Below, one piece after another: positions 602 through 19,847 of a DNA stretch of 64,000 bases. The position numbers and the translations under genes were made by a program. The notes under the pieces were generated by a model. It worked only from the letters and a program-made list of their open reading frames with translations. It made no database searches and was not told the DNA's origin. The stretch is from Escherichia phage Ecwhy_1: sequence record MH791411.1. The stretch is one strand, 5' to 3'. Positions within the stretch are counted from its first letter, which is position 1; each line of letters starts with the position of its first letter.

Positions 602-690
602 AATTTTGTTTCCTTTTATTGGTGTGGGGAGAACTATTCTCCCCTTGATGTAAACTATTATACAGTACTAAAATACTTTGTCAAATACTT
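602..690 (-). promoter_or_regulatory. PeSL-like cassette
   Basis: TTGACA-17-TATAAT then GGGGAGAATAGTTCTCCCC hairpin (minus strand). Confidence 0.65.
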
Positions 691-1098
691 TTATTCGCCC
701 ATATAGATTAGATTATCATCGCCTACATAGGGATCGCAAACGTTGATTTCTTCACAGTACTTCGTGAATACATCGCCATAGTGACCTAAACCACGATCCC
801 AAAAACCAGTTCCGTGACCTTCGCGGGTAAGGAACAGATCATGACCAGCTTGCTCATAACCGTAATCAATAAACATACCGCGAACTACTTCCAGATCATT
901 ACCGTGTTTCTCAATGAAGCGAGAACATGCAATCACCGCCGCTTGACGTGCTTCATCAGATAACTCATAATCTTCCAGGTAATCGCCGTTATCATTATGT
1001 ACAGTACTGAATTGCATAGCTTCAATGTAAGCTACAACCATTGCAGCATGATTTTTATCGTTAGTGATGTTCCGAGCGAGATTAGTAGTAGTAGACAT
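691..1098 (-). CDS. hypothetical protein (135 aa)
   Basis: ORF track; ATG start; PeSL-like cassette upstream. Confidence 0.65.
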   Translation of the reverse strand: MSTTTNLARNITNDKNHAAMVVAYIEAMQFSTVHNDNGDYLEDYELSDEARQAAVIACSRFIEKHGNDLEVVRGMFIDYGYEQAGHDLFLTREGHGTGFWDRGLGHYGDVFTKYCEEINVCDPYVGDDNLIYMGE

Positions 1099-1181
1099 GA
1101 TTTTATTCCTTATTGTATTGGGGAGAACTATTCTCCCCTTGATGTAAACTATTATACAGTACTGATATACTTTGTCAATAC
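1099..1181 (-). promoter_or_regulatory. PeSL-like cassette
   Basis: TTGACA-17-TATAAT + GGGGAGAA..TTCTCCCC hairpin. Confidence 0.65.
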
Positions 1182-1403
1182 TTAATTACGTTTAAAATGA
1201 TATGTGCCTTTATCATCCTGTACGCCCCATACTGATTTACCATCAACACCAGTGAAGCCGGATTGTAATTCAATATGGAAACCATTATTATCAACTACAA
1301 AAACTTTTTTATTTTCATCCCGATAACATTGATATTCTGAATCAACATTAAAGGCCGCATCATTCAGACGATTGGAAGCGTAAATGCAAGTCATTGTAGT
1401 CAT
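1182..1403 (-). CDS. hypothetical protein (73 aa)
   Basis: track ORF trimmed: first 11 codons are read-through of the hairpin; start MTTMTC after SD. Confidence 0.55.
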   Translation of the reverse strand: MTTMTCIYASNRLNDAAFNVDSEYQCYRDENKKVFVVDNNGFHIELQSGFTGVDGKSVWGVQDDKGTYHFKRN

Positions 1404-1500
1404 GATTTTATTCCTTAATATACCAGGGAGAACCATTCCCCCTCTCGATATAAAACATTATACTTGATTCTAAGTACAATGCAAGTACTTTTTTAAAAAT
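1404..1500 (-). promoter_or_regulatory. PeSL-like cassette
   Basis: TTGCAT-N17-TATAAT + GGGGGAATGGTTCTCCC hairpin. Confidence 0.6.
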
Positions 1501-1504
1501 AGTT

Positions 1505-1627
1505 TTCAGTACTGAATACTTATATAATAGATACACTTCCGCACCCTATGGGTCAGTGAGTTATCTCTCAATGGATATATAATAGCAAAGGGACTGACCG
1601 GAGTCAATCCCTTTTTTTAATCTTTTT
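1505..1627. repeat. conserved ~120-bp intergenic element, copy 1
   Basis: shares AGATACACTnnnGCACCCTRTGGG box and GGGACTGACCGGAGTCAATCCC hairpin + T7 run with copies at 4785 and 8785. Confidence 0.6.
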
Positions 1628-2212
1628 TTATCGTGTTACCTTACTTGCTGCCACATCACGCTTTTTATAGTACTGATTCCAGATATTGCTGGTTAAACCG
1701 TAATCAAGTACTTTAATAAGTCCATTACGATCCTGGCCGATATTCTGTTTTCTGATATCTCTTATCGTTAGTGTTGATAATGTATCATCAACGTGTTGTA
1801 GTGCATCAGCAAAGCGGTGCTGGCGTTCGATTGCATTACGTTTAATATTGTACTTTAATTCATTGCACGCGTTTACGTGCTTCACACTGCCTTTGCTTGC
1901 AGTACTCAACCGATCCATAACGATAAACATATTATCAGGATCGCATAAATGCATATGCACCTTTGCAAAGTACTGTTTCAATTGAGGGCGGTCATAGTCT
2001 AAAAAATTCCATACCTTACATTCAGTTTCATTTTGTTCTACACCCGCATCACAATTCGCGACCTTAATCACTAACCGATCATTTAAAGCGAAAACTATAC
2101 GGGAAGAACCAGCACCGATGATCTCCAGGCCAGCTAACCGACAAGCTGAAAGGATCTCTTTGTTGGTTTCCATTTCTGACAGTGTACGGATGAATTTAGT
2201 ATAATTACGCAT
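1628..2212 (-). CDS. protein kinase-like protein (194 aa)
   Basis: track ORF starts at TTG inside promoter; ATG (MRNYTKF) follows AAGGAG; IGAGSSRIVF..VIKVA and RDIRKQN..VLDYG resemble kinase G-loop/Lys/catalytic loop/DFG. Confidence 0.5.
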   Translation of the reverse strand: MRNYTKFIRTLSEMETNKEILSACRLAGLEIIGAGSSRIVFALNDRLVIKVANCDAGVEQNETECKVWNFLDYDRPQLKQYFAKVHMHLCDPDNMFIVMDRLSTASKGSVKHVNACNELKYNIKRNAIERQHRFADALQHVDDTLSTLTIRDIRKQNIGQDRNGLIKVLDYGLTSNIWNQYYKKRDVAASKVTR

Positions 2213-2243
2213 TGCATGTTCTCCTTGAGTTAATGAAACTATA

Positions 2244-2486
2244 TTACAGTACTTTACTATCAATGGCAACTACTTTTTTAACATTAACGGCGTGGATCAC
2301 TTCCTTCGTGTTTTTAGTACTGAATACTTTCGCCGCTCCTTGTTCGACCGTGATACGATAGCGACCATTAACATCAACCATATTAATAAAGTCCGGCGTG
2401 CTGAATGGTGTTGTTTTACATTTGAGTACTGTTAACAGTTCCACCAGCGATGTAGTTTCTTTGATACGTTTTTCTAAAGTAATCAT
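2244..2486 (-). CDS. hypothetical protein (80 aa)
   Basis: track ORF trimmed to MITLEKR; upstream 19 codons are promoter read-through. Confidence 0.5.
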   Translation of the reverse strand: MITLEKRIKETTSLVELLTVLKCKTTPFSTPDFINMVDVNGRYRITVEQGAAKVFSTKNTKEVIHAVNVKKVVAIDSKVL

Positions 2487-2543
2487 TTTGTTTCCCCCGT
2501 GTTGGTATGTACATATAGTACTAAAACATTTGAGTACTGTCAA

Positions 2544-2762
2544 TTAGATAATATTATATTTCTTAAAATAAAATGCGTCCTGTGTTGGTTGATACTCGAT
2601 ACCGTTACCGTTATTGACTTCAACTAATAAACCTTTGTCAATTAGTTTTTTAATAGTACGATACCCTTGTTGAAAATTGGTAAAATGTGAATCATTACGA
2701 AAGGTATAACCGTGCTTAACTGCTTCATCAATAGTTTTCTTTTCGATTTTAGATAATTTCAT
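2544..2762 (-). CDS. hypothetical protein (72 aa)
   Basis: track ORF trimmed to MKLSKIEK; promoter-leader duplicated from the 2244 gene. Confidence 0.5.
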   Translation of the reverse strand: MKLSKIEKKTIDEAVKHGYTFRNDSHFTNFQQGYRTIKKLIDKGLLVEVNNGNGIEYQPTQDAFYFKKYNII

Positions 2763-2815
2763 TTTGTTTCTCCCGTGTTGGTATGTGTACATAGTACTAA
2801 AACAATTGAGTACTG

Positions 2816-3070
2816 TCAACGTGATATTAGTTTTATTTTCTTATTGTATTGTTGATGCTCATAAAGGTTTATCTTTCCTGTGTTCTCGATTACTATCCTG
2901 TTGTTAGTGTCCACGTCGATTACACGCAGTTTCCCGTTGCTTAACTTCCTAGGTAATAGGTTACCATTAATAAACTCATTAGCAAGCTGTACGGCCTTTG
3001 TGATGATTCTCTGAGGTGCTTTATAGTGTACCCGTAAGATGTTATCTTTATATAGTTGAACCTTAATCAT
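2816..3070 (-). CDS. hypothetical protein (84 aa)
   Basis: ORF track; ATG after AGGACAAACAAA. Confidence 0.55.
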   Translation of the reverse strand: MIKVQLYKDNILRVHYKAPQRIITKAVQLANEFINGNLLPRKLSNGKLRVIDVDTNNRIVIENTGKINLYEHQQYNKKIKLISR

Positions 3071-3084
3071 TTTGTTTGTCCTAT

Positions 3085-3115
3085 AAAAAAGGCGGGAACT
3101 GATCCCGCCGTGTTG
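3085..3115 (-). terminator. rho-independent terminator candidate
   Basis: GGCGGGATCAGTTCCCGCC hairpin followed by TTTTTT on minus strand after stop of 3132 gene. Confidence 0.6.
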
Positions 3116-3131
3116 TTAGTACTGCAAGTTA

Positions 3132-3527
3132 TTAGATAACCTGGCGGCGTTTACTGTATACTGTTACACGATTACCCTTACGATCATGTCGGATCTCTTT
3201 CTGGTTGCGAATCAGTTCACTTGGACGCTTAAGGTTTGCCAGGTGATCCGCGTGAGTCCATGCGGTGTGGTTTACCTGTACTTTGATATCAGAATCAGCG
3301 ATAAACTCATCTTGTGCGTCAAGTATTGCCGCCAGCATATCCGCTCGTTTTAGTTCTGCTGCTGTCAGTACTGGCTCAGGTGAATTCACAATATCAGAGA
3401 TTTCTTTGAACTGTACGGCCCAGCGTTGACCTTTCGTTGCATCTTTGCCCATGTCTTTAAATGCTGCTCCTTCCTCGCGTGCAACAATACGGGCAGCTTC
3501 ACGGGTAGCGTAGAATTTAGTAATCAT
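3132..3527 (-). CDS. hypothetical protein; paralog of 16542-16808
   Basis: shared KYFATREQARIAAR..GATFKDMG..DRKGNRVTVY; start set at MITKF after AGGA. Confidence 0.6.
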   Translation of the reverse strand: MITKFYATREAARIVAREEGAAFKDMGKDATKGQRWAVQFKEISDIVNSPEPVLTAAELKRADMLAAILDAQDEFIADSDIKVQVNHTAWTHADHLANLKRPSELIRNQKEIRHDRKGNRVTVYSKRRQVI

Positions 3528-3622
3528 GGTATACATCCTATTAGTTGAGTTAGTACTACAAGTTAGAGTCTATTATAAAGTACTATCTGGGCAATGTCAA
3601 ATAGTACTTTAAATGGATTCTA

Positions 3623-3946
3623 TTACATGTCTTTCTTACGTTTTACATCGTGGTAGCGAACTGTTATTTCTTTGTTGATCTCTTCCTCGATGCGATGAAT
3701 AACTTTTTCTTTCGGGTTGAAACCTATAACGGTTTCTTTAATGATCTCCAAGCCCGTGTATTCGCCTTGTGTACCGTAACCGTATGTAAAGGTTTCGTGT
3801 CCCAGGTCTTCCCAGCGGTCGCCAATTAACGCAGACACGTAGCAAGAGTGGTAAGTATTGCCGTGTGAATCAGTCCACCGATTAACGTTAATGTCAAAGG
3901 AGGTTACAATTTTCAATTCTACTTTCTGGGCAAGGATCATAGCCAT
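3623..3946 (-). CDS. hypothetical protein; paralog of 10466-10789
   Basis: shared RWTDSxGNTYHSCxVS..TYGY..VKRKKD; ATG start. Confidence 0.65.
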   Translation of the reverse strand: MAMILAQKVELKIVTSFDINVNRWTDSHGNTYHSCYVSALIGDRWEDLGHETFTYGYGTQGEYTGLEIIKETVIGFNPKEKVIHRIEEEINKEITVRYHDVKRKKDM

Positions 3947-4033
3947 TTTTATTTCTCTCTCTTTGTTAGGAGGGGAACCATTCCCCTCGCTTGATGTAAA
4001 CTATTATACAGTACTAAGATACTTTGTCAATAC
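3947..4033 (-). promoter_or_regulatory. PeSL-like cassette
   Basis: TTGACA-17-TATAAT + GGGGAATGGTTCCCC hairpin. Confidence 0.65.
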
Positions 4034-4216
4034 TTATTTTTTGGAAAGTTTACGCATTAATTCTACGCTTTCTTGTGAACGTTTTGCTACCTGGCAAGCT
4101 GTATGGGCAGTAAACATTTTTGTATAGTCTGACGCTTTGCCACCGAACCGAGCGGCACGTTCACGGGCACTTGGAACTAATACTATTTCTTTATTACAGA
4201 TAGTGCACTTAGCCAT
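4034..4216 (-). CDS. hypothetical small Cys-containing protein (60 aa)
   Basis: trimmed to MAKCTICNK; CxxC near N-terminus. Confidence 0.55.
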   Translation of the reverse strand: MAKCTICNKEIVLVPSARERAARFGGKASDYTKMFTAHTACQVAKRSQESVELMRKLSKK

Positions 4217-4304
4217 TTTTATTTCTCTCTCTTTGTTAGGAGGGGAACCGTTTCCCCTCACTTGATGTAAACTATTATACAGTACTAAGATACTTTGTCA
4301 ATAC
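4217..4304 (-). promoter_or_regulatory. PeSL-like cassette
   Basis: TTGACA-17-TATAAT + GGGGAAACGGTTCCCC hairpin. Confidence 0.65.
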
Positions 4305-4580
4305 TTAAGTATTGTAAATGTCGTGAATAGTGATAAAGTTTTTACGACCGTAAACATGTAAATCAGTATCAATGTAGTGCTTATCAAGTACATCCTCGAC
4401 GCTTAAAGACGTGTCGTGAATATCTTCATAAAATTGTGGATCAACAATCGTGCTTAAGTCATCTGGCGTTAACTTATCGTTAAGGCATTGAACCGCCTGG
4501 ATATCTGCTTCACGTTTCCATTGTTCCAGATTAGTAGTCAGTACTTGCTCGATTTCGTTAGCTGTAAGTAAAGTCCGCAT
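4305..4580 (-). CDS. hypothetical protein (91 aa)
   Basis: ORF track; ATG after AAGGAAAC. Confidence 0.6.
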   Translation of the reverse strand: MRTLLTANEIEQVLTTNLEQWKREADIQAVQCLNDKLTPDDLSTIVDPQFYEDIHDTSLSVEDVLDKHYIDTDLHVYGRKNFITIHDIYNT

Positions 4581-4600
4581 TTTAATGTTTCCTTATCAGT

Positions 4601-4740
4601 GGTTGATGTAAGTATTATACTCGTTTACTTTCTATTGTCAAACTATTTTATCAGGGGAGTTTTTCGTATGTCTTACTCCTGGACTACTTAACGGGGTTAC
4701 TTATTTCGTTCCCCGTCCTGATGTAAAACATTATACTTGA
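4601..4740 (-). repeat. duplicated structured leader, copy A (copy B at 15826-15960)
   Basis: ~140 bp near-identical; two hairpins (ACGGGG..CCCCGT; CAGGAGT..ACTCCCCTG) between tandem promoters. Confidence 0.6.
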
Positions 4741-4784
4741 TTCTAAGTACAATGCAAGTACTTTTTTAAAAATAGTTTTCAGTA

Positions 4785-4895
4785 CTAGCCACCAGCAAAC
4801 AATAGATACATTTATGCACCCTGTGGGCTAATTTGTTTCTATGCGTATATAATAGCAAAGGGACTGACCGGAGTCAATCCCTTTTTCAAATATTT
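4785..4895. repeat. conserved ~120-bp intergenic element, copy 2
   Basis: GCACCCTGTGGGC box + GGGACTGACCGGAGTCAATCCC hairpin + T-run. Confidence 0.6.
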
Positions 4896-5045
4896 TTAAA
4901 CTTCTTTCGGGTTGCGATATGTGATAGCGTTCGGGTACATTTGTTTAATGTTATTCCATGCCTGGTTAACATTATAACCACTTGATCGAATCAGTTGGTT
5001 ATTACCGACACCTTGAAACACTACTTCAAATAAGAATTCTTTCAT
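4896..5045 (-). CDS. hypothetical small protein (49 aa; below track cutoff)
   Basis: ATG overlaps stop of 5042 gene (ATGA); reads MKEFLFEVVFQGVGNNQLIR. Confidence 0.4.
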   Translation of the reverse strand: MKEFLFEVVFQGVGNNQLIRSSGYNVNQAWNNIKQMYPNAITYRNPKEV

Positions 5046-5215
5046 GCTTTCACCTCTCGATCTGCTTTGCCTTTACGCCAGGCCGTTGCTAATTGTTCGC
5101 GTTGCCATAAGTCGAGTGATACGTAAAGTTTTGCATTATCACCCTTCGGATATTCGCCAGTAGTACCAATCCGATAAAACAGATCTTTCAGTACTGTTAA
5201 TTCTACCTGGACCAT
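5042..5215 (-). CDS. hypothetical protein (57 aa)
   Basis: trimmed to MVQVELT after hairpin read-through. Confidence 0.5.
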   Translation of the reverse strand: MVQVELTVLKDLFYRIGTTGEYPKGDNAKLYVSLDLWQREQLATAWRKGKADREVKA

Positions 5216-5302
5216 TATACTTTCCTCTTTGTTAGGAGGGGAACTATTCCCCTTCCGATATAAAACATTATACACTTTATTCAGTACTGTGCAAGTACTT
5301 TT
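5216..5302 (-). promoter_or_regulatory. PeSL-like cassette
   Basis: promoter + GGGGAATAGTTCCCC hairpin. Confidence 0.6.
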
Positions 5303-5515
5303 TTAATCTTTCAGCCAATGATCCTGAATGAATTTTTCACCGGAACCTTGCTGCATTGATTGTAACAGACGTTCGCGATGAGCGGCGGCGAATTGCTCAG
5401 TACTATGCGTTACACCTGGTTGATATCTGGATTCACCATTTGGGGCGATGTATTGTACATCCCACGGTTTTTCGTTAGTATCAGACCATTTACGAACGAT
5501 TAGTTGACCTTGCAT
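5303..5515 (-). CDS. hypothetical protein (70 aa)
   Basis: ORF track; ATG start. Confidence 0.6.
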   Translation of the reverse strand: MQGQLIVRKWSDTNEKPWDVQYIAPNGESRYQPGVTHSTEQFAAAHRERLLQSMQQGSGEKFIQDHWLKD

Positions 5516-5598
5516 TTTTCTTTCCTCTTAGTGGGGAGAATCATTTCTCCCCTTCATGTAAACTATTATACAGTACTGGATTGCATTGTCAATAGTTT
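5516..5598 (-). promoter_or_regulatory. PeSL-like cassette
   Basis: TTGACA-17-TATAAT + GGGGAGAAATGATTCTCCCC hairpin. Confidence 0.65.
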
Positions 5599-5922
5599 TT
5601 ATTCACCTTGTTTGAATATAGTTTTCTCCATTGATTCCATGATTGCAACCAATACAGCATGGATCTCACTTAACGCGGCATCACTAAAAGCATTAATGAA
5701 TAGGCAATCATTCTCGCGAATATTTTTAATGTACTTATCAGCAGTGGTTGCGAATTCATTCAACGGCAGATCAAATGCTTTATCCCATAATGGATGGCGT
5801 AACTGTAACAGTACTGGATTATCACGATCACCAGGGGAAAACGTACCAGTGATGAAACATACGCCCGGAATACTTTCGAACTGGCAACGGACTTCCTTTG
5901 TGATAGTAGTATGAATGTACAT
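5599..5922 (-). CDS. hypothetical protein (107 aa)
   Basis: ORF track; GAGGA SD. Confidence 0.6.
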   Translation of the reverse strand: MYIHTTITKEVRCQFESIPGVCFITGTFSPGDRDNPVLLQLRHPLWDKAFDLPLNEFATTADKYIKNIRENDCLFINAFSDAALSEIHAVLVAIMESMEKTIFKQGE

Positions 5923-5949
5923 TTATTGTTATCCTCTATTAAATTAATA

Positions 5950-6138
5950 TTACAGTTTATGAATTAATTCTTTATCTAAGCGATAGCGTACATTATTAAT
6001 GGTAACAGCATTATTTTTAATGCTACGCTGTACGGGTCCACCAGCAATAACAAACGTTGCTTTATTGCCCCGAACAATGATAGCACTTCCAGGATTACCG
6101 AAATCATCTTGTACTAAAATACTTGATAAGTTTTCCAT
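5950..6138 (-). CDS. hypothetical protein (62 aa)
   Basis: ORF track. Confidence 0.55.
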   Translation of the reverse strand: MENLSSILVQDDFGNPGSAIIVRGNKATFVIAGGPVQRSIKNNAVTINNVRYRLDKELIHKL

Positions 6139-6216
6139 TTTTATTTCCTCTTAGTAGGGGAAGATGTTTCCCCTTGATGCAAGTACTATAACAGTACTGA
6201 AAACTAAATGCAAGTA
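6139..6216 (-). promoter_or_regulatory. PeSL-like cassette
   Basis: promoter + GGGGAAACATCTTCCCC hairpin. Confidence 0.6.
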
Positions 6217-6573
6217 CTATGATAAAATCATGATAGGATATTCACTATCTATCAATACCTCGAATCCGAAACCTTCGTACCATTCTTTAAGATTAAAGGC
6301 GTTATCTTCTCCCGTATCGCATTCTAAGATGATACAATCTGAATCATCGGCGGCATCAATAAAGGCATTCATTAATTCGTTACCTTCACCATTGCCCCGA
6401 CTATCAGGATCAACATAAAGAGAATCAATAAACGCTACACGGTCATAATCAAGATCCGGTGCAATGATTCCACGTTTAACAAACCAGTACTGCAATTGTG
6501 CTACTTTGCCCTGTACTTGATAGCCAGTGATCTCGCCATTGTCAGTAGTACGCGTGATATGTTGTATTCCCAT
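6217..6573 (-). CDS. hypothetical protein (118 aa)
   Basis: ORF track; TTGACA-17-TATAAT promoter and GAGGAT SD upstream. Confidence 0.6.
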   Translation of the reverse strand: MGIQHITRTTDNGEITGYQVQGKVAQLQYWFVKRGIIAPDLDYDRVAFIDSLYVDPDSRGNGEGNELMNAFIDAADDSDCIILECDTGEDNAFNLKEWYEGFGFEVLIDSEYPIMILS

Positions 6574-6636
6574 GATTACTATCCTCAGTTAAGATATAAA
6601 ACATTATACACTATCTTTCAGTACTGTCAATACTTT

Positions 6637-6894
6637 TTATCTCATAGATCTATGCCAACAATTACGCGGATCTCTTTTAAAAGTACTATCATGATCCTCC
6701 TGGCAAGTAATACAATACATGCACCCTATAACGGCCTGGCGTCGATTCTCAGGGATTTTATCGCCGCAGTCGAGGCAATGTACAAGTGATTCTCTTTGTG
6801 CGTTAATTTGCTTTCTAGCGTGGTTAACGGCGGCCTGAATCACTGCATGAATCTCGTCTTGTTCGGCCCCGTCTTTCGCGTATCCTACTGCCAT
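6637..6894 (-). CDS. TraR/DksA-family C4 zinc-finger protein (85 aa)
   Basis: CLDCGDKIPENRRQAVIGCMYCITC = CxxC-x17-CxxC with conserved IPxxRR. Confidence 0.65.
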   Translation of the reverse strand: MAVGYAKDGAEQDEIHAVIQAAVNHARKQINAQRESLVHCLDCGDKIPENRRQAVIGCMYCITCQEDHDSTFKRDPRNCWHRSMR

Positions 6895-7056
6895 TATTTT
6901 AACCTCATTATAAAAATACTATAGTACTGTAATGCTACAATAATACTACTAGTGTTTATCTTATTCAAACCATATGATACTACATATCCACCAGCATTAC
7001 CACGAATAGTAACGCCTTTGTACTGTCTATATAAATTCAACTGCGTATATTGCCTT

Positions 7057-7129
7057 TGATCAAGAATTGATCAGAATTATACGCCTTATGCTAAATTGAT
7101 CCAGTACTTTTTTGATCATTTATTGATCG
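7057..7129. promoter_or_regulatory. cluster of five TGATC(A) / GATC sites
   Basis: five GATC within ~73 bp in an intergenic region. Confidence 0.5.
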
Positions 7130-7223
7130 ATATTATATAGTTACATTTGTGCACCCTATGGGTTAGTGACGTTCTCGTCTTGATGTAAGTATTATGCCAG
7201 TACTGGAGGATATTGTCAATAGA

Positions 7224-7421
7224 TTATTTTAATTTTTTTCTGTCATTGATTAATGCTTTCAGTACTATACTAATAACTTGCAATGATTCATCAATGACAA
7301 TGAAATTATTCTCTTTCATTAGATGATAGTTACCATTGATTGTATATTCTAACGAGTACTGTTTACGTTTAATTTTTGATAATGTTTCTATTTGTTTTTG
7401 TACTGATTTCATGCTAATCAT
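7224..7421 (-). CDS. hypothetical protein (65 aa)
   Basis: track ORF starts at TTG; ATG (MISMKS) two codons downstream. Confidence 0.5.
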   Translation of the reverse strand: MISMKSVQKQIETLSKIKRKQYSLEYTINGNYHLMKENNFIVIDESLQVISIVLKALINDRKKLK

Positions 7422-7489
7422 TGTCAAACGTCCTGTAACGCATTCTAACGAGATAAACGGTTTAGTACTGGCATTGTATAGGGTAAATG

Positions 7490-7527
7490 ATTAAAGCCCA
7501 CCAGCGTTAACCAGTGGGCTATAATAT
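7490..7527 (-). terminator. rho-independent terminator candidate
   Basis: AGCCCACTGG..CTGGTGGGCT hairpin + T-run (minus). Confidence 0.5.
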
Positions 7528-8023
7528 TACATCTTGCGGATAATCTTAACAGTATCTTTCACCGATTTACCGTTTTGCTGACATTGCTCGATCATCGCGT
7601 ATTGTTCTGCGGTCAGATCCTCGCCAGTTTTTGCCAGTACTGCGTCGATGAATGAATCCAGTGCGATCATTTTATTTCTCTCTTAGGTTAAGTTAACTAC
7701 TGTTTATAAAACTTATTATACAGTACTATCAATCTATGTCAATAGTACTGGTAATATATTTTAGCGGTAGTCGTCGTATGCTTTATTCACCTGGCGAATA
7801 TAACTTTCAAAGGCTTCGTCTACCGTTTCATACTCCCGAACATAATCACCATATGAAACTACATACATACCTTTTTGATCTTCAAACGTCATGATGATAG
7901 AATCCAGACCAACGATTTCAGTTTTTGCGATGATAGCCATTTTTTAATTCCTTAGTAGTGTAGTTGATAAAAGTTATTATGTCAGTACTATCAAACTATG
8001 TCAATAGTACTGTGATAATATTT

Positions 8024-8236
8024 TTAGTTAATGATAGTCAGTGTAAAATTGTAATCACCGCAGCGATATAGCACGTTATTCCCAAATGTCCCAACTAATC
8101 GCACATCACACAAAACGCCGGTTTTTTCTTTTACTTCCTTGATACTTGTAACTCCTGTAATATCTTTATTAAAGTATTCATGATCTGAAAATAAAACTTG
8201 TTTTGCATTTTTTAATTTCGACCGGATATTAGCCAT
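8024..8236 (-). CDS. hypothetical protein (70 aa)
   Basis: ORF track; PeSL-like cassette upstream. Confidence 0.6.
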   Translation of the reverse strand: MANIRSKLKNAKQVLFSDHEYFNKDITGVTSIKEVKEKTGVLCDVRLVGTFGNNVLYRCGDYNFTLTIIN

Positions 8237-8332
8237 TTTGTTTTCTCTCTCTGTTAGTGGGGAGAAGTTTTTCTCCCCTTGATGTAAACTATTATACAGT
8301 ACTATAATCTATTGTCAAACTATTTTTTTATA
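8237..8332 (-). promoter_or_regulatory. PeSL-like cassette
   Basis: TTGACA-17-TATAAT + GGGGAGAAAAACTTCTCCCC hairpin. Confidence 0.65.
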
Positions 8333-8674
8333 TTATTCGAAATCTTCTGGACCGGACTGATAATCATCTTCACCGTATGCACTTTCTAACCGCTCGCCAG
8401 TGTGATCATCAGTTAGTGAGTCATCCTCATAGTTCACGTCTACGCCAGTGATGTAAAACTGGCTATCGTCTGGATCATTGAAATTAATTTTCTGTATGTT
8501 TACAATAACTGTATTGATGCCCAGGACACCGCCATCAGCCGTTACAAAGTACTGATAGTTTTCGCAACCGCCTGAATTGAAACCGTAATTAATTTCGGCC
8601 CGACCATCATTTAAACGCAGTGCCTGGGCGATGATTTCGTTTTCAAAGTTAGATTGAGCAATTGAGATAGTCAT
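8333..8674 (-). CDS. hypothetical protein (113 aa)
   Basis: trimmed to MTISIAQ after hairpin read-through. Confidence 0.55.
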   Translation of the reverse strand: MTISIAQSNFENEIIAQALRLNDGRAEINYGFNSGGCENYQYFVTADGGVLGINTVIVNIQKINFNDPDDSQFYITGVDVNYEDDSLTDDHTGERLESAYGEDDYQSGPEDFE

Positions 8675-8760
8675 GATTTGTTTCCTTATTACCAGGGGAA
8701 ACCGTTTCCCCCTCTCGATGTAAAACATTATACGCTTATTGAGATAGTTTGCAAGTACTT
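8675..8760 (-). promoter_or_regulatory. PeSL-like cassette
   Basis: promoter + GGGGGAAACGGTTTCCCC hairpin. Confidence 0.6.
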
Positions 8761-8784
8761 TCTACAAATACTTTTAAAATAGTT

Positions 8785-8905
8785 TTCAGTACTCAATACT
8801 CATATAATAGATACACTTATGCACCCTGTGGGCTAGTGAGCTATCTCTCAATGAATATATAATAGCAAAATGGCTGACCGGAGTCAACCACTTTTTTCAT
8901 TTATT
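8785..8905. repeat. conserved ~120-bp intergenic element, copy 3
   Basis: GCACCCTGTGGGC box + TGGCTGACCGGAGTCAACCA hairpin + T6. Confidence 0.6.
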
Positions 8906-9126
8906 TTTAGCTTTTAGAATCGCCGCCTTTCGCGTCATGCCTTGCTTGATGTATTCTTGTACTTTCGCTTTACGTGCATTCGCTTTATTTGCTTTCGTAA
9001 ATGCCGAACAACTTTTATAGTTTAAACCTGTTGGATTCATTTAAATCACCATAAAGAATAGATAGGTTACTAACAACGCCGCGATCAATGCACCGACCAG
9101 GGCCGAACTATAGTAAGCTAATGTTT

Positions 9127-9279
9127 TCATTTTTTAGCCTGAAAGTAATGTTTAATTTGAGCGGCGGTCAGTGCACAATTACGCAGGAAGTTTTCTGTAT
9201 AACTGCGGCGAGTACTGAAAGAGAATTGACCTTTGCCGTTACCGATAGTAACATCAAACCGAGCGTTGTATTGTTTCAT
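9127..9279 (-). CDS. hypothetical protein (50 aa)
   Basis: trimmed to MKQYNARFD. Confidence 0.45.
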   Translation of the reverse strand: MKQYNARFDVTIGNGKGQFSFSTRRSYTENFLRNCALTAAQIKHYFQAKK

Positions 9280-9363
9280 TTTGATTCTCCTGTTATTGGG
9301 GAGAATCATTTCTCCCCTTCATGTAAAACATTATACAGTACTAAAAACTAATTGCAAGTACTA
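9280..9363 (-). promoter_or_regulatory. PeSL-like cassette
   Basis: promoter + GGGGAGAAATGATTCTCCCC hairpin. Confidence 0.6.
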
Positions 9364-9507
9364 TTTTTTAGATTTACGCAAACTTTCTACCATCTCAGGA
9401 GTAAGGCCCGGCGGGTAGGAAACTACTTCATCAACGAAACGTAAAGGGAATACCCCAGCGAAAGGTGAACGTGCTTTCTTAGTATTACTCTTTTTTGATG
9501 CTTTCAT

Positions 9508-9576
9508 TTCATATTCCTTAATTAGTGGGGAGAATCATTTCTCCCCTTCATGTAAAACATTATACGCGTTTAAAAA
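9508..9576 (-). promoter_or_regulatory. PeSL-like cassette
   Basis: same hairpin as 9280 cassette; precedes an unannotated ~48-aa ORF (MKASKKSN..) at ~9364-9507. Confidence 0.5.
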
Positions 9577-9786
9577 CTAATTGCAAGTACTATTTGAAAG
9601 TAAATGCTCATACGCTGCATTAACTACGTTTTCAATAACCGACTGTACAGAAAGATCCCCCACGTCCTGGCTATAGTAGAAATCGCTTACAGTGGTGTCA
9701 TCGTATGCAAATACTTTACCAGGTACTGCATCAATCACATACATATTAACCTTTAAGATGTCGATCTTATCCTGTACAGTAAGCAT
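9577..9786 (-). CDS. hypothetical protein (69 aa)
   Basis: ORF track. Confidence 0.55.
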   Translation of the reverse strand: MLTVQDKIDILKVNMYVIDAVPGKVFAYDDTTVSDFYYSQDVGDLSVQSVIENVVNAAYEHLLSNSTCN

Positions 9787-9791
9787 ATTAA

Positions 9792-10064
9792 TTAACCTTT
9801 TAAGTACTGGCTTAAGTAGTCTTGTTGATCTTCGGTGATTGCAGCCATCTTCCCTAGTACTGGATTAATGATATAATCCCCTGTAACGTCCTGTAACGCA
9901 TTCTCAGGCGGTTTAACGGCTGGGGTAGCCATAGCCATCGCCTGGACTTGTTCGACGCTATAACGCTCATATAGGCGGCATTCTTCCGGTGTTAACATAG
10001 CATCAATGCGTTTCATTGGTTTAATGATGCTTTCAACTTCATTCAGTACTTGATTAACGTTCAT
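9792..10064 (-). CDS. hypothetical protein (90 aa)
   Basis: ORF track; ATG. Confidence 0.6.
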   Translation of the reverse strand: MNVNQVLNEVESIIKPMKRIDAMLTPEECRLYERYSVEQVQAMAMATPAVKPPENALQDVTGDYIINPVLGKMAAITEDQQDYLSQYLKG

Positions 10065-10115
10065 GGTATAATCCCCAATATAAGCGGCCTGAATCGACCG
10101 CTAACGATGTTTTGA

Positions 10116-10385
10116 TTAATAGGTGTATGGTTGACGTTCAAACAATGATTGCACGTTGTACGCCCCACTAATGGGCTTTGCTGGTAAATCAATTTTATAT
10201 TGCTCACGCTTAAAGATAATAAAACGGCAATTGTTTTTAACATCAAAATTGATTGAACGTTCCAGTAGTTTACCATCGTGCACAAATACAAGATAACCGC
10301 TCGCTACTTGTTTTGTAGTACTGGTTGCAACCATAGACCGCCGAACATGTGTACCTGCGTCGATTAAAGTACTGATATTTTTCAT
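10116..10385 (-). CDS. hypothetical protein (89 aa)
   Basis: ORF track; AAGAGGAA SD; preferred over overlapping 10061-10291. Confidence 0.55.
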   Translation of the reverse strand: MKNISTLIDAGTHVRRSMVATSTTKQVASGYLVFVHDGKLLERSINFDVKNNCRFIIFKREQYKIDLPAKPISGAYNVQSLFERQPYTY

Positions 10386-10465
10386 TATACGTTCCTCTTA
10401 AGTTAATTTAATTTCTTTCCCCTATGCAGACACTATATCAAAGTATCTGCATAAAGTAAAGCTAA

Positions 10466-10789
10466 TTAAAGATCTTTTTTGCGTTTAACATTCTGTACAG
10501 TACAATGCAACGGGATATTAAGATCATTGCACAAACGAGTAAGGGAGGTTTCATCAGTATTAAGCCCGTCTACTGATTCCTTTAATAGATCTAACGCCGT
10601 TTGTTGATATGCATCTTCATAGCCATAAGTAAATGATTCAACCGCCAGATCATTCAAACCGTTATCCAGTTCGACGCTTACATGACAAGAATGATAAGTA
10701 TTGCCATATGAATCAGTCCAACGTTTACCGTCAACATTGATTGCACGGATTGCAGCCAGGGAAACGGTGTTAATGATAGTTTTAGCCAT
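10466..10789 (-). CDS. hypothetical protein; paralog of 3623-3946
   Basis: shared RWTDSYGNTYHSC..TYGY..VKRKKD. Confidence 0.65.
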   Translation of the reverse strand: MAKTIINTVSLAAIRAINVDGKRWTDSYGNTYHSCHVSVELDNGLNDLAVESFTYGYEDAYQQTALDLLKESVDGLNTDETSLTRLCNDLNIPLHCTVQNVKRKKDL

Positions 10790-10878
10790 TTTTGTATTCC
10801 TTAAATTAATATGTTGTCTTGATAAAATCTATTATGCCAGTACTATCAAACTATGTCAATAGTACTGTGATAATATTT

Positions 10879-11091
10879 TTACTTACTTTCTTTCGCTGCT
10901 TTGTGCGTTGCCACTGCCATAACCACATCAGCACGAACAAAGTTTTTAACCGTGTCGCTGTAATAATTGATCGCTTCATCAATATCTGCGAACATCCGAT
11001 ACATACCGCACCACGATACTTTATAACCTGCTTTCACTTCTTCCAGCTTAACCAGTGATTTGTTAACTTTGATTTTAGTAATGATAGCCAT
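10879..11091 (-). CDS. hypothetical protein (70 aa)
   Basis: ORF track; upstream promoter cassette identical to the one at 10790-10878. Confidence 0.6.
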   Translation of the reverse strand: MAIITKIKVNKSLVKLEEVKAGYKVSWCGMYRMFADIDEAINYYSDTVKNFVRADVVMAVATHKAAKESK

Positions 11092-11319
11092 TTTATTTTC
11101 CTCAGTTGTCTTGATAAAATCTATTATGCCAGTACTATCAAACTATGTCAATAGCACTGTGATAATATTTTTACTTACTTTTTGCTTTCTTGATTGCTTC
11201 CACCTGGTCGGCCCATTCTTTACCCCATACTTGTAAATTATAATGGTACTGGCAAAGAGCAACGCCCCGCTTTAAACCCGTAATAGATTTCTGACCACAT
11301 TGACAAGTTTTCATTTTAG

Positions 11320-11400
11320 TTTCCTTGTAGTGGGGAGAACCATTTTCTCCCCTTGATGTAATGTATTATACTTTATTCGATTTACTTTGCAAGTACTTTT
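11320..11400 (-). promoter_or_regulatory. PeSL-like cassette
   Basis: promoter + GGGGAGAAAATGGTTCTCCCC hairpin; precedes unannotated ~47-aa Cys-containing ORF (MKTCQCGQK..) at ~11176-11319. Confidence 0.5.
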
Positions 11401-11628
11401 TTAATTTAATTCATCAAGGCAAAGGATACGCTCAACGCCCAAATCAGTTAAACTAATCGACGGCACTTGATAGGTTTCAATGTATGCTACACTTGCCCAC
11501 TGACCGAACTCATTAACGGCCCAGGTATTCATTGCATTTTGCAATTCCGCACCTTCCTTGTTGGTAATGACTGCAACTACTTGTTCGTTGCCAGTAGTAC
11601 CAGATACGCGAGTAATGATAATAGCCAT
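11401..11628 (-). CDS. hypothetical protein (75 aa)
   Basis: trimmed to MAIIITRV. Confidence 0.55.
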   Translation of the reverse strand: MAIIITRVSGTTGNEQVVAVITNKEGAELQNAMNTWAVNEFGQWASVAYIETYQVPSISLTDLGVERILCLDELN

Positions 11629-11720
11629 TGTTTTGATTCCTTTGATTTGGAAGGAGAACCGTTTCCCCCTCTCGATGTAAAACATTATACGCTAATCTCT
11701 TAATCGTGCAAGTACTTTTT
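11629..11720 (-). promoter_or_regulatory. PeSL-like cassette
   Basis: promoter + GGGGGAAACGGTTCTCC hairpin. Confidence 0.6.
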
Positions 11721-11869
11721 ATTACTTTTTGCAAAATACTTTAAACGCTCTCAATCGCGTTCTTACAGCCTTAACGCCACCAGCTAGGGCAATGCATCAG
11801 ATAATCAGTTTAATGCGTTAGAATCGTTTCTAGGCGGTGCTGGTGGCATGGTAAACGATAAACACAAAA

Positions 11870-11913
11870 AAGCCCACCGTTTAAGGTGGGCTAGTGATTC
11901 AGTACTTTAATTG
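11870..11913 (-). terminator. rho-independent terminator
   Basis: GCCCACC-TTAAAC-GGTGGGC hairpin + TTTTTT on minus strand after stop. Confidence 0.7.
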
Positions 11914-12396
11914 TTATGCTTCAACTTTGCGATGAGATTCGATCCATTCCTCGCGAGTCATACCGCTGGCGTTAATCGCGTCCAGTACTACCGCAATGCA
12001 GTTACCACGCACCGGAATCAGATATTCTTCCCCGTTGTCCAGTACTACCGCTACGCGTTCCTGAATCCATTTTTTGGCTTTTACTTCTGGCTTGTCTTCC
12101 CCATACTTAACCGCCAGGGCTTTTTGTGCCATCTCTGTAACTACTTCCAGATCCAATCCAACTACTGCCGCCTGAATACTTTCGATTGTTGCTTGTAGTT
12201 CTGCTTCACGGGCCGCCTTTGCCGCTTCAATTTCTGCCGCTTTATTTGCTTGTAGTTCTTTCGCAGTACTGTACGCGATGTTAAAATTATTGCGTACCGC
12301 TTTCATGGTATCGTTATCCAGTTCAGCCAGGATCTCAGCCGCGACGTTAGTTTCATTTGCTACCAGTGCTTTGATGAATGATTTTACATTAGCCAT
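11914..12396 (-). CDS. hypothetical protein (160 aa), Ala/Glu-rich
   Basis: track ORF starts at TTG; ATG (MANVKSF) follows GAGGA SD. Confidence 0.6.
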   Translation of the reverse strand: MANVKSFIKALVANETNVAAEILAELDNDTMKAVRNNFNIAYSTAKELQANKAAEIEAAKAAREAELQATIESIQAAVVGLDLEVVTEMAQKALAVKYGEDKPEVKAKKWIQERVAVVLDNGEEYLIPVRGNCIAVVLDAINASGMTREEWIESHRKVEA

Positions 12397-12599
12397 TTTA
12401 TAAATCCTCAATTAAAGTTTAGTTTACGTTTATTAGTGTATCAAAGTTTTCTCGACGTGTCCAGTTTTTCGTTCGACTTACTGGCGGTCTACTTAGTGCT
12501 CCCCGTCTTGATGTAATACATTCTACGCTTTTCTGCGGTAATGTCAACTACTTTCTTAAAACTATTTTCAAAGTATCTCAGTACTACGATACTACAAAA

Positions 12600-12629
12600 A
12601 CAAAAAAGCCCACCAGGTGGGCTATGTAC
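12600..12629 (-). terminator. rho-independent terminator
   Basis: GCCCACC-TGGTGGGC hairpin + T-run (minus). Confidence 0.65.
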
Positions 12630-12860
12630 TTAATCAGTGAGTAAAATATTAAACACTTTACCATTTAACGTTATTGGTGCACTGCTACCAGGCACAAGAT
12701 CCGTTAGTATACCTGCAATCGCTTTATCATTGGCTACCTTTCCAGTGTCCAACAGTACTACAGTACTGATAAGATTAACGCTCGTTTCAATATCATAATG
12801 CACGGCGTTAAGTAGTTGTGTAGTACTGCTTTCGTTAAGTAAAACAATTCGCTTAGTCAT
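12630..12860 (-). CDS. hypothetical protein (76 aa)
   Basis: ORF track. Confidence 0.55.
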   Translation of the reverse strand: MTKRIVLLNESSTTQLLNAVHYDIETSVNLISTVVLLDTGKVANDKAIAGILTDLVPGSSAPITLNGKVFNILLTD

Positions 12861-12881
12861 GATGTTACCCCGTAGTATCTA

Positions 12882-13181
12882 TCAACGGCAATTAATAACG
12901 CCGGTATGAGTTACTTTCTCGGTATCCATTACAGTGACCGAACCGCGTTTAGCACTGGCATCATAATAAATTGTCGTGCTACCGTTTTCGTCTTCTTCAT
13001 GGAACGGGCCGTTTTTAAATGCTTCCGGCTGGATCTCTAAATCCTTTAATACAATCTCGCCAGTTCTTTCATCGGTCATTGCAACAGTGCACTGAATGAA
13101 TTTTTCACTACTTACATCTAATGACGCATTAACAGCGAAAGAGGAAACAGATAAAGCCAGGGCGATGATTGCAATTTTCAT
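12882..13181 (-). CDS. secreted hypothetical protein (99 aa)
   Basis: N-terminal signal-peptide-like MKIAIIALALSVSSFAVNAS. Confidence 0.6.
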   Translation of the reverse strand: MKIAIIALALSVSSFAVNASLDVSSEKFIQCTVAMTDERTGEIVLKDLEIQPEAFKNGPFHEEDENGSTTIYYDASAKRGSVTVMDTEKVTHTGVINCR

Positions 13182-13265
13182 TTGATTATCCTTAGTTACC
13201 AGGGGAAACCGTTTCCCCTTGCGATGTAAAATATTATACAGTACTAAAAACTAATTGCAAGTACT
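13182..13265 (-). promoter_or_regulatory. PeSL-like cassette
   Basis: promoter + GGGGAAACGGTTTCCCC hairpin. Confidence 0.6.
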
Positions 13266-13502
13266 TTATGATTTTTTATAAAACATTTCAGCAGTGATAT
13301 TTTTACCCGTTGGCTGTACTTTATCCAGAATTTTTTGATGCCCTGGTCGTCCAAAGGAATATGATCCGTAAACAGTAAACCAGTAGTTACCCTCAGTGTT
13401 TACATGTACAGCACAATAAGGAACACCACGCGATTCATCACTAGTAAAGTGTGATACCGTTCCCGTTACATTCGCAGACGTTGATTTGATTTGTTCGACC
13501 AT
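13266..13502 (-). CDS. hypothetical protein (78 aa)
   Basis: ORF track. Confidence 0.6.
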   Translation of the reverse strand: MVEQIKSTSANVTGTVSHFTSDESRGVPYCAVHVNTEGNYWFTVYGSYSFGRPGHQKILDKVQPTGKNITAEMFYKKS

Positions 13503-13580
13503 TTTCTTATTCCTTAGTTACCAGGGGAACCGCTCCCCCTATGCAAAACATTATACGCGTTTAAAAACTAATTGCAAGTA
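13503..13580 (-). promoter_or_regulatory. PeSL-like cassette
   Basis: promoter + GGGGGAGCGGTTCCCC hairpin. Confidence 0.6.
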
Positions 13581-13610
13581 TTTTAATAAAAAGTATTTGA
13601 AAAATAGTTG

Positions 13611-13680
13611 TTGACAAGTGCATCCAGTACTGGCATAATTACTACATCAAGACGAAACAGTCACTAACCCACCGGGTGCC
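13611..13680 (+). promoter_or_regulatory. plus-strand sigma70-type promoter + conserved box
   Basis: TTGACA-N17-CATAAT on plus strand, ACCCACCGGGTGC box ~30 nt downstream. Confidence 0.5.
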
Positions 13681-13745
13681 GAGATCCGTCTATTAAATGA
13701 TTCAGTACTGAAAAAGTAACGGGGAGTTATTATCTCCCCGTGTTG

Positions 13746-13967
13746 TTATTTTGTAAGGTATAAACAGAAGTCGCCTTTATTTGCTACGCCGCCAGTGTAA
13801 CGCGAGGAATAGTTAGAAACGTCCTGGACTTCTGCTATTACCAGGGTATCATCATTCAATTCGTCGCAGAAGCAAACGGCTGGATCTTGTACGCCGATTT
13901 TGTCGGCATGTTCCCGCATAGATTTAACCAGTGCTTCCAGTTGGGAAAGAGTAGTGATATTAGCCAT
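13746..13967 (-). CDS. hypothetical protein (73 aa)
   Basis: trimmed to MANITTL. Confidence 0.55.
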   Translation of the reverse strand: MANITTLSQLEALVKSMREHADKIGVQDPAVCFCDELNDDTLVIAEVQDVSNYSSRYTGGVANKGDFCLYLTK

Positions 13968-14051
13968 TTTATTTTCCTCATTACCAGGGAGAACCATTTC
14001 TCCCTTTGATGTAAACCATTATACAGTACTGAAAACTAATTGCAAGTACTT
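13968..14051 (-). promoter_or_regulatory. PeSL-like cassette
   Basis: promoter + GGGAGAAATGGTTCTCCC hairpin. Confidence 0.6.
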
Positions 14052-14240
14052 TTAATTAAATTCCATAAAATCATTTTCAACGTGCACAACAATCTGATTA
14101 TTTTTAAAGGACGCAGAAAACTCTATACAATCATAAACCGCTTTTTCTGTTACCAGACTATGAGCACCAATCGGATTAATTGGGGATTGAATTGTTTCAA
14201 TCTCGTTACCTTGTTCATTAACGATTAAAATATTAAACAT
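14052..14240 (-). CDS. hypothetical protein (62 aa)
   Basis: ORF track. Confidence 0.5.
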   Translation of the reverse strand: MFNILIVNEQGNEIETIQSPINPIGAHSLVTEKAVYDCIEFSASFKNNQIVVHVENDFMEFN

Positions 14241-14279
14241 TGCCGTTACTCCTGGATAGTGTTAACTCGATATAAAGTA

Positions 14280-14462: not shown

Positions 14463-14536
14463 GATTAAAGCTCCTGGATAGTGTTAACTCGATATAAAGT
14501 ATTATACAGTACTGAAAACTAATTGCAAGTACTTTT

Positions 14537-14797: not shown

Positions 14798-14854
14798 TAG
14801 ATAACCCTCAGTAAAGGCGGGAACTATTACCCGCCATTATCTCAGTACTGAATA

Positions 14855-15796: not shown

Positions 15797-15825
15797 TTTG
15801 TAACCCTCATTCAGTAGTTGATGTA

Positions 15826-19836: not shown

Positions 19837-19847
19837 AGTATACCTTA

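Follow-up and report, generated by a model that had tools for sequence, protein, structure and literature searches.

Proteins of the TraR/DksA family bind RNA polymerase at its secondary channel. In TraR, three elements have been described. The first is a helix at the N terminus; its tip, which bears the DxxDxA motif, extends to the active site and places residue 2 at 4.3 Å from the Mg2+ (PMC9239242, PMC6970531). The second is the zinc-finger domain, whose residues P45, E46, R48, and R49 mediate docking on the β′ rim helices and Si3 (PMC9239242, PMC6970531). The third, a C-terminal helix, contacts the β lobe-Si1 and is needed for regulation (PMC9239242). Both aspartates of the DxxDxA motif have been reported to be required for the function of TraR and of its phage homologue Orf73.

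Experiments on lambda Orf73 and four other phage homologues of TraR have demonstrated that these proteins reprogram host RNA polymerase (PMC9239242). All five of these proteins, namely, lambda Orf73, P2 Orf82, VP882 Orf61, VHML Orf8, and X. bovienii Gp34, bind RNA polymerase (PMC9239242), and lambda Orf73 slows host growth and raises the burst size (PMC9239242). Two of them depart from the TraR pattern at the N terminus. X. bovienii Gp34, which has no D3, equals TraR in RNA polymerase binding, with a 50% inhibitory concentration (IC50) at rrnB P1 of ∼415 nM versus 50 nM for TraR (PMC9239242), and VHML Orf8, which carries an N-terminal extension, is active but weaker (PMC9239242).

A literature search on the function of a further family member, YbiI, yielded only a single complementation remark and its membership in the sigma-S and Fur regulons. 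Overexpression of YbiI was stated to rescue dksA auxotrophy, as "data not shown" in that report (PMC2613031). The gene is sigma-S dependent, belongs to the Fur regulon, and lies in an iron-related cluster, and those who tested it favored an iron-related function.

The zinc-finger gene and its genome location

We analyzed a 64,000-nucleotide stretch of Escherichia phage Ecwhy_1 (MH791411.1), referred to here as the window. A sequence-only reading had pointed to a small zinc-finger gene, and its position and strand, together with the CxxC-x17-CxxC pattern and the IP-x-x-RR segment, proved accurate when compared with the open reading frame (ORF) listing and with the translation itself. The features of the gene are as follows.

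6637..6894 (stop codon included), minus strand: TraR/DksA-family (YbiI-like) C4 zinc-finger coding sequence, an ATG-start ORF of 85 aa
6903..6906, minus strand: GAGG Shine-Dalgarno sequence, 8 nt before the ATG
6859..6894, minus strand, codons 1-12: conserved N-terminal tip MAVGYAKDGAEQ, with Y/F-x-x-D-x-A where TraR has DxxDxA
6703..6777, minus strand, codons 40-64: C4 zinc-finger core CLDCGDKIPENRRQAVIGCMYCITC (C40, C43, C61, C64), from the translation and the profile
6739-6756, minus strand, codons 47-52: IPENRR within the zinc-finger core, R51/R52 corresponding to TraR R48/R49
6640..6669, minus strand, codons 76-85: C-terminal tail PRNCWHRSMR, found near-verbatim in the phage-type homologues inspected

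The translation of the ORF is MAVGYAKDGAEQDEIHAVIQAAVNHARKQINAQRESLVHCLDCGDKIPENRRQAVIGCMYCITCQEDHDSTFKRDPRNCWHRSMR. Read directly, it shows the cysteine arrangement C40-x2-C43-x17-C61-x2-C64, plus one extra, nonconserved cysteine (Cys58), and the IP-x-x-RR segment takes the form I47-P48-E-N-R51-R52. When the 64-kb window was searched by regular expression in each of its six frames, CxxC-x15-19-CxxC turned up only once, at 6777..6703, and no second copy or other TraR-like gene was detected in the window by this motif scan. An Rfam scan of the entire window at the gathering threshold returned zero matches. Since the predicted N terminus (MAVGY...) coincides with the family-wide MAxG[FWY]AKDGA, the start codon is assigned correctly. 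The 60 nt preceding the ATG contained one substitution across five Asteriusvirus genomes.

At positions 6000..7500, the window shares 100% identity with a jumbo phage of the genus Asteriusvirus, fEgEco12 (PP777464.1, 374,733 bp), and 92 to 99.7% identity with some 40 relatives, among them 121Q, SP27, and vB_Ec-M-J. The gene corresponds to g030 of fEgEco12 (XBS49112.1), annotated "DksA-like zinc-finger protein," and to gp294 of 121Q, which bears the same name. In this sense the gene is an ordinary find, being already annotated as DksA-like or TraR/DksA in fEgEco12, 121Q, and many relatives. In the fEgEco12 record, g030 occupies positions 11,479-11,736, inside a direct terminal repeat of 20,993 bp for which experimental support was presented in the fEgEco12 paper. 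The zinc-finger region matches two places in that record, and the vB_Ec-M-J homologue lies under an annotated "Direct Terminal Repeats" feature. Location within the direct terminal repeat implies that each virion genome carries two copies of the gene. Farther along, window positions 15103-24000 correspond to fEgEco12 positions 357,974-349,072 at 98.9% identity, and the window thus represents, in reverse orientation, the right end of the genome of a very close relative. By calculation, the terminal repeat would end near 19.3 kb of the window, in agreement with a reversal of GC skew at ∼20 kb. The reported annotation of fEgEco12 lists a phage sigma factor and no RNA polymerase, and its relative PA5oct has no RNA polymerase gene and is rifampicin sensitive. 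The fEgEco12 paper makes no mention of promoters or of DksA.

Given that the ORF is small and sits among many unannotated tiny ORFs, and that several records say "hypothetical protein" only, it might be a chance ORF or a decaying hitchhiker gene that serves no function in the phage. However, pairwise comparison with four related phages gave a dN/dS of 0.13 to 0.20, and the ORF was intact and full length in 41 related genomes. Homologues that are 62 to 72% identical and have the same termini are present in unrelated T4-like phages, and the protein matches curated profiles, just as its gene possesses a Shine-Dalgarno sequence and a conserved upstream region. We thus conclude that this is a real gene maintained by selection; the chance or nonfunctional reading is in effect excluded by the conservation data, and we assign it next to no probability.

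Family assignment and the determinants of TraR

Membership in the TraR/DksA family, proposed initially from the cysteine spacing and the IP-x-x-RR segment, was borne out by profile searches. The protein matched Pfam zf-dskA_traR (PF01258) over residues 39-68 with 36.9 bits against a gathering cutoff of 24.9 (E = 3.7e-9) and PHROG 54, "DksA-like zinc-finger protein," over residues 12-77 of its 85 aa (8e-19). The best-scoring model was NCBIfam NF008243 (YbiI), which covered residues 1-73 of 85 (E = 3.5e-22) with 78.6 bits, below the equivalog cutoff of 96. The TraR family model TIGR02419 reached 49.1 bits (E = 6e-13), below its curated cutoff of 59.7, and the TraR equivalog NF010268 reached 31.6 bits against a cutoff of 108, while the match to the DksA model NF033459 was insignificant (E = 0.04, 14 bits against a cutoff of 105). 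The similarity is therefore much greater than chance would give and not confined to the spacing of the cysteines, as the PHROG and YbiI profiles extend past the finger and the curated Pfam threshold is passed.

Structure-based comparisons gave a similar picture. Among sequences in the PDB, E. coli YbiI (2KGO) matched best, at 2.4e-11, followed by TraR in its RNA polymerase complexes (6N57/5W1S) at 5e-6. When a profile of 47 homologues was compared by hhalign, residues 21-71 aligned with residues 18-68 of F-plasmid TraR at 98.6% probability, and residues 33-69, which comprise the finger only, aligned with DksA at 86%. The AF2 model (pLDDT 71) predicts a long N-terminal helix that spans residues 6-28 and a zinc ribbon, together with two short helices (49-54 and 62-68) and a tail that is mainly coil; its top Foldseek matches were YbiI, in first place, RNA-polymerase-bound TraR, and DksA proteins. 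In the 47 homologues, all four zinc-finger cysteines are invariant, as are I47, P48, R51, R52, G57, and Q65, with E49 conserved in at least 90% of the sequences. The N terminus is similarly constrained, M1, A2, and G4 being invariant and A6, K7, D8, G9, A10, and Q12 being conserved in at least 90%.

When 1.84 billion cluster representatives were searched with a profile, 2,526 relatives were recovered at an E value of ≤1e-3, and the sole cluster below 1e-30 was the phage-type cluster. The phage-type homologues, 84 to 87 aa long and 62 to 96% identical, come from Asteriusvirus and from T4-like phages (Citrobacter phage Moon, SP18, Marfavirus, and Yersinia phages); in all of them the N terminus reads MAVGFAKDGAEQ and the C terminus PRNCWHRSMR or a close variant of it, with occasional substitutions at P76 or S83. 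The bacterial YbiI proteins are ∼88 aa long, start with MAGG[FW]AKDGAVQ, and end with [YF]NRRGSKDSQLR. E. coli YbiI is 37% identical to the phage protein, and other bacterial YbiI-type sequences aligned at 42 to 51%. The YbiI-type N-terminal consensus MAxG[FW]A-x-D-G-A-V-Q, which we defined in this analysis from 150 cluster representatives, is represented in the phage protein by the tip listed above; the YbiI tail, also defined in this analysis, is absent from it apart from R77 and the terminal [LM]R, which both have in common. A few sequences have intermediate tails, as in P0124 (...HNRKVWHRSMR) and P0139 (...YNRKANYHTQLR). PHROG 25948 matches residues 57-85 of the phage protein, tail included, and in the AF2 model the tail, predicted at low confidence (pLDDT 51 to 64), is largely coil and has a turn of four residues at 80-83. 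More widely, tblastn found family members in 953 of 50,697 phage records, including those of lambdoid and Stx phages with Orf73-type TraR homologues. Judged by its sequence, the protein is a member of the YbiI branch of the family and not of the TraR branch.

How far the protein retains the working parts of TraR can be read from the alignments. The docking element is fully conserved, since TraR P45, E46, R48, and R49 align with P48, E49, R51, and R52. The DxxDxA motif is not present; the corresponding segment reads Y5-A-K-D8-G-A10 (F5 in most homologues) and keeps D-x-A alone. In the ungapped register (offset 3), A6, G9, and E11 occupy the places of TraR D3, D6, and A8, and a shift of one residue is needed to place D8 and A10 on TraR D6 and A8, in which case the first Asp is replaced by Tyr or Phe. 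No hhalign alignment to TraR or DksA was obtained for residues 1-20, and the placement of the TraR N terminus by MAFFT was not relied on, as it involved an arbitrary 3-residue gap. As a counterpart of TraR's C-terminal helix (residues 58-73), AF2 gives only the helix at 62-68, followed by low-pLDDT coil, and the TraR alignment stops at residue 71. On this alignment evidence, the zinc-finger/RR element appears to be the only one of the three TraR determinants that is conserved, so that the phage protein should be regarded as a putative binder of RNA polymerase. The further suggestion that a phage-encoded copy could retune host transcription stands as an argument from homology, because neither the DxxDxA tip nor the C-terminal helix appears to be conserved as such. 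The precedents of Gp34, VHML Orf8, and YbiI soften these mismatches.

The protein could also be mainly a channel plug, a competitor that keeps DksA (with ppGpp), GreA/GreB, or Rnk out and thereby blunts the host's stringent or antibacktracking response, with no TraR-like reprogramming of initiation. Its docking parts are kept, namely, the long N-terminal helix and the zinc finger with P48, E49, R51, and R52, whereas the tip motif for the catalytic site and the C-terminal helix that contacts Si1 appear not to be, and Rnk exemplifies a protein that binds the channel and does no more than compete. Nevertheless, few parts of the family are as highly conserved as the MAxG[FWY]AKDGA N terminus, which argues for a specific role rather than a passive one, and the reported rescue of dksA auxotrophy by YbiI, even as data not shown, implies DksA-like activity. 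We therefore regard simple plugging as rather improbable.

Promoters, neighboring ORFs, and a proposed mechanism

The gene is one of a string of small minus-strand ORFs, between which lie perfect or near-perfect sigma-70 promoter-like sites. The neighboring features are the following.

7191..7219, minus strand: nearest strong promoter-like site upstream of the zinc-finger gene, TTGACA-N17-CATAAT with AGTACTG, conserved in five phages
6894..7040, minus strand: upstream 48-codon ORF with a TTG start (fEgEco12 g029, 121Q gp293)
6603..6630, minus strand: perfect promoter TTGACA-N16-TATAAT, which begins 7 nt past the zinc-finger stop codon and serves the GNAT gene
6217..6573: GNAT acetyltransferase gene, downstream of the zinc-finger gene

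The minus strand of the window contains 14 perfect TTGACA-N16-17-TATAAT sites, which lie mostly in the first 16 kb, and many further promoter-like sites are one mismatch from perfect. Most of the perfect or near-perfect sites have AGTACTG just before the -10 element, and many also have AGTTTACATCAA after it. In the 4- to 10-kb stretch we counted 39 promoter-like sites, compared with 23.3 ± 4.6 in shuffled sequences. The discriminators of these sites are A+T rich, with 1 to 3 G+C in seven positions. The site at 7191..7219 is the likely start of the transcript carrying the zinc-finger gene, which would then have a leader of ∼290 nt. No terminator-like site was seen between the zinc-finger and GNAT genes. 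We had considered the GNAT neighbor as a conserved partner and rejected it, as it is not kept in the T4-like phages. A literature search for expression data on Asteriusvirus or on DksA-like phage genes found none. Because of the host sigma-70 promoters, the terminal-repeat location, and the tiny accessory ORFs, the placement of the gene among early genes by the sequence-only reading is consistent with its context and can be considered a reasonable inference.

The TAA of the upstream 48-codon ORF overlaps the zinc-finger ATG (TAATG). This ORF stays open in diverged relatives, with a dN/dS of 0.13 to 0.33, and is restricted to Asteriusvirus, apart from one nonsignificant match in an Erwinia phage (E = 0.01). 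No similarity linked it to mobD.3, the ORF with which the SP18 homologue is coupled, or to the neighbor in Marfavirus. The ORF is putatively coding and possibly specifies a translationally coupled small protein.

Such start/stop coupling to a small ORF could also fit a YbiI-type role unrelated to RNA polymerase, in which the conserved N terminus and the basic C-terminal tail bind some other host or phage macromolecule (a nucleic acid, the ribosome, or a metal homeostasis or stress factor), possibly with a partner, and the zinc finger serves as a scaffold. VP882 TraR acts in complex with its partner QisA, the C4 TraR/DksA-like proteins RSP0166 and SMc00049 do not work like DksA, and the phage and bacterial branches both keep strongly conserved C-terminal tails that have no TraR counterpart. 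The sigma-S dependence of YbiI, its iron-related cluster, and the iron preference of its testers point in the same direction. Against this, the TraR docking residues are conserved (P48, R51, and R52 invariantly, E49 in at least 90%), and a long helix with a zinc ribbon in ∼85 aa is the build of the active TraR class, whereas the inactive proteins of intermediate length are without the helix features. Moreover, five of five TraR-sized phage homologues tested bind RNA polymerase. We consider a role away from the polymerase unlikely.

The reading that we prefer, at a probability of roughly 60%, is that the protein, expressed early, binds in the RNA polymerase secondary channel without need of ppGpp and would lower the activity of rRNA and ribosomal-protein promoters and spare those of the phage. 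The gene, its family, its conservation, and its context are observed, and from them we infer the timing of its expression, its binding to the polymerase, and its effect on transcription. At the start of infection, host sigma-70 RNA polymerase would transcribe the gene from a near-consensus early promoter. The single long N-terminal helix would then enter the secondary (NTP-entry) channel of the E. coli enzyme, and the zinc-finger domain would dock on the β′ rim helices and Si3 via the invariant IPExRR element. Once bound, the protein would alter open-complex kinetics without ppGpp. Promoters for rRNA and ribosomal proteins form short-lived open complexes. These promoters would be damped, and the phage consensus promoters with A+T-rich discriminators would be unaffected; in this proposal, polymerase and resources would shift to the phage as a result. 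Two of the proposed steps draw on established knowledge of DksA/TraR-sensitive promoters together with the assumed binding. The potency and promoter spectrum of the protein probably differ from those of TraR.

A more far-reaching idea is that the phage YbiI-type proteins, marked by their common start and the PRNCWHRSMR tail and spread over Asteriusvirus and several T4-like genera, form a distinct class of early host-takeover proteins. In one version they may be secondary-channel effectors that, through a longer tip without DxxDxA and a novel tail, affect RNA polymerase in a manner unlike that of TraR or DksA. In the other, RNA polymerase may not be the target, and the protein may have a partner, for example, the product of the coupled 48-codon ORF, by analogy with VP882 TraR-QisA. 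We hold this idea to be a long shot; were it true, solving the phage protein would give bacterial YbiI its first function. Since the copy in the window belongs to the YbiI branch and has a tip and tail unlike those of TraR, it bears on whether the whole branch, E. coli YbiI included, binds RNA polymerase. The terminal repeat of a jumbo phage that depends on the host polymerase and has very strong sigma-70 promoters is a natural setting for the question of how host transcription is redirected.

Comparison with known systems

DksA (151 aa, acting with ppGpp) has the same zinc-finger domain as the phage protein, and direct reading reveals a shared tip pattern D-x-A-x-Q-[DE], namely, D8-G-A-E-Q-D in the phage protein and D74-R-A-A-Q-E in DksA. 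In contrast to DksA, the phage protein, with 85 aa and a single helix, has neither the coiled-coil hairpin nor the N-terminal region nor the ppGpp-site residues.

F-plasmid TraR (73 aa; 5W1S, 6N57) resembles the phage protein in combining a single N-terminal helix with a C4 zinc finger and in being small and encoded by a mobile element. The predicted ∼23-residue N-terminal helix of the phage protein gives it a TraR-like architecture, and by analogy it would be expected to act without ppGpp. The two proteins differ at both ends, the phage protein having 2 to 3 extra N-terminal residues and, where TraR has a long C-terminal helix, a 17-residue tail that is mostly coil in the AF2 model.

The five tested phage homologues belong to the same Pfam family as the window protein and are likewise phage encoded and TraR sized. 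The window protein unites the features that set Gp34 and Orf8 apart, since it both lacks D3 and carries an N-terminal extension. Over the finger, the copies in lambdoid and Stx phages are 46 to 50% identical to it by tblastn. The logic attributed to the tested proteins, diversion of host transcription during lytic growth, is the same as that proposed here. However, they come from temperate phages, where they are encoded in lysis-lysogeny or replication regions, whereas the present gene lies in the terminal repeat of a virulent jumbo phage. They also belong to the TraR branch and have its C-terminal helix, and none has the PRNCWHRSMR tail, while the window protein is of the YbiI branch.

E. coli YbiI (88 aa; 2KGO; NF008243, "DksA/TraR family C4-type zinc finger protein"; PRK11019) is of the same length class. 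The N-terminal signature MAxG[FWY]A-x-D-x-A-x-Q is common to both proteins, and YbiI further resembles the phage protein in its CxxC-x17-CxxC with IPxARR, in the Asp after the finger, and in Arg77 and the C-terminal Arg. The differences include the tail, near-invariant in bacteria as YNRRGSKDSQLR and reading FKRDPRNCWHRSMR in the phage protein, and position 11, which is Glu in the phage protein and Val in YbiI; His25 is specific to the phage proteins.

The YbiI-type proteins that T4-like phages encode (for example, those of Shigella phage SP18, gp103, of Citrobacter phage Moon, and of Klebsiella Marfavirus, "ybiI") differ from the window protein in their setting, as they belong to another phage lineage and another locus, where neither a GNAT gene nor a g029-like ORF is found. 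Nevertheless, they are 62 to 72% identical to it over the full length, at 84 to 87 aa, and share the MAVGFAKDGAEQ start and the PRNCWHRSMR end, and their genes likewise lie among small accessory genes, in the early-type tk-mobD-nrdC region.

Leader and short ORF upstream of the zinc-finger gene

The TraR/DksA-family zinc-finger gene is preceded by a leader that contains a short ORF and a cluster of GATC sites:

6895..7185, minus strand: leader upstream of the zinc-finger gene, roughly 290 nt
6894..7040, minus strand: 48-codon ORF with a TTG start, corresponding to fEgEco12 g029 and 121Q gp293
7056..7128: GATC cluster, in the leader between the promoter at 7219..7191 and the 48-codon ORF

The TAA stop of the 48-codon ORF and the ATG start of the zinc-finger gene overlap as TAATG, and the ORF is still open and protein-like in the diverged relative SP27, at ∼60% DNA identity and with a dN/dS of 0.33. 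It is confined to Asteriusvirus, apart from one weak, nonsignificant match in an Erwinia phage (E = 0.01). Its product may be a coupled partner protein of the zinc-finger protein.

Only one substitution was observed in the first ∼95 nt of the leader across five Asteriusvirus genomes, including SP27. The leader has a more stable fold than its shuffled controls (minimum free energy of −66.1 kcal/mol, z = −3.3) and has no match in Rfam. Five GATC sites, each inside a GATCAA/TTGATC repeat, lie within 71 nt of the leader; this is the densest such cluster in the window, where the mean is 2 GATC per kb, and the bulk of it is kept in four of five relatives. These could be Dam/SeqA-type or operator-like sites.

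Promoter families

Near-identical, very strong sigma-70-type promoters in the window, mostly on the minus strand, share the extended consensus TTGACA-N9-AGTACTG-TATAAT-AGTTTACATCAA and have A+T-rich discriminators. Perfect (12/12) sites number 14 on the minus strand, with the majority in the terminal-repeat part. The family looks like the early-promoter class of the phage.

657..18962, mostly minus strand: sigma-70-type promoter family (e.g., 684..657, 4030..4003, 5592..5565, and 8318..8291)
4884..4849, 8894..8859, 42971, 44609, 46416, 50890, 53933, and 57527, minus strand: repeated composite element

In the composite element, a G+C-rich hairpin (AAAGGGnTTGACTyCGGTCAGyCCCTTT) carries a TTGACT −35 hexamer within its stem-loop, and either TTGCTATAAT or GCTATTAT comes after it. 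The element looks like a fusion of a terminator with the promoter that follows.

Comparison with fEgEco12

Identity of the window to the Asteriusvirus phage fEgEco12 is not complete throughout, and two regions are of note:

about 14000..15100: 14000 to 15102 is absent from the best alignment
about 19300..20000: inner end of the direct terminal repeat, placed near 19.3 kb by arithmetic, at a sign change in GC skew

Since 14000 to 15102 is missing from the alignment and 15103 to 24000 is 98.9% identical, we conclude that the window derives from a very close relative of fEgEco12. A second GC skew reversal lies near 39 to 40 kb.

Gene neighborhood in Asteriusvirus and T4-like phages

Directly downstream of the zinc-finger gene is a gene with a perfect promoter of its own:

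6217..6573, minus strand: GNAT-family N-acetyltransferase gene

No similarity was observed between the 48-codon ORF and the ORFs that precede the zinc-finger homologues in T4-like phages. Whereas the T4-like phages carrying such a homologue lack the zinc-finger/GNAT adjacency, it is kept in Asteriusvirus.
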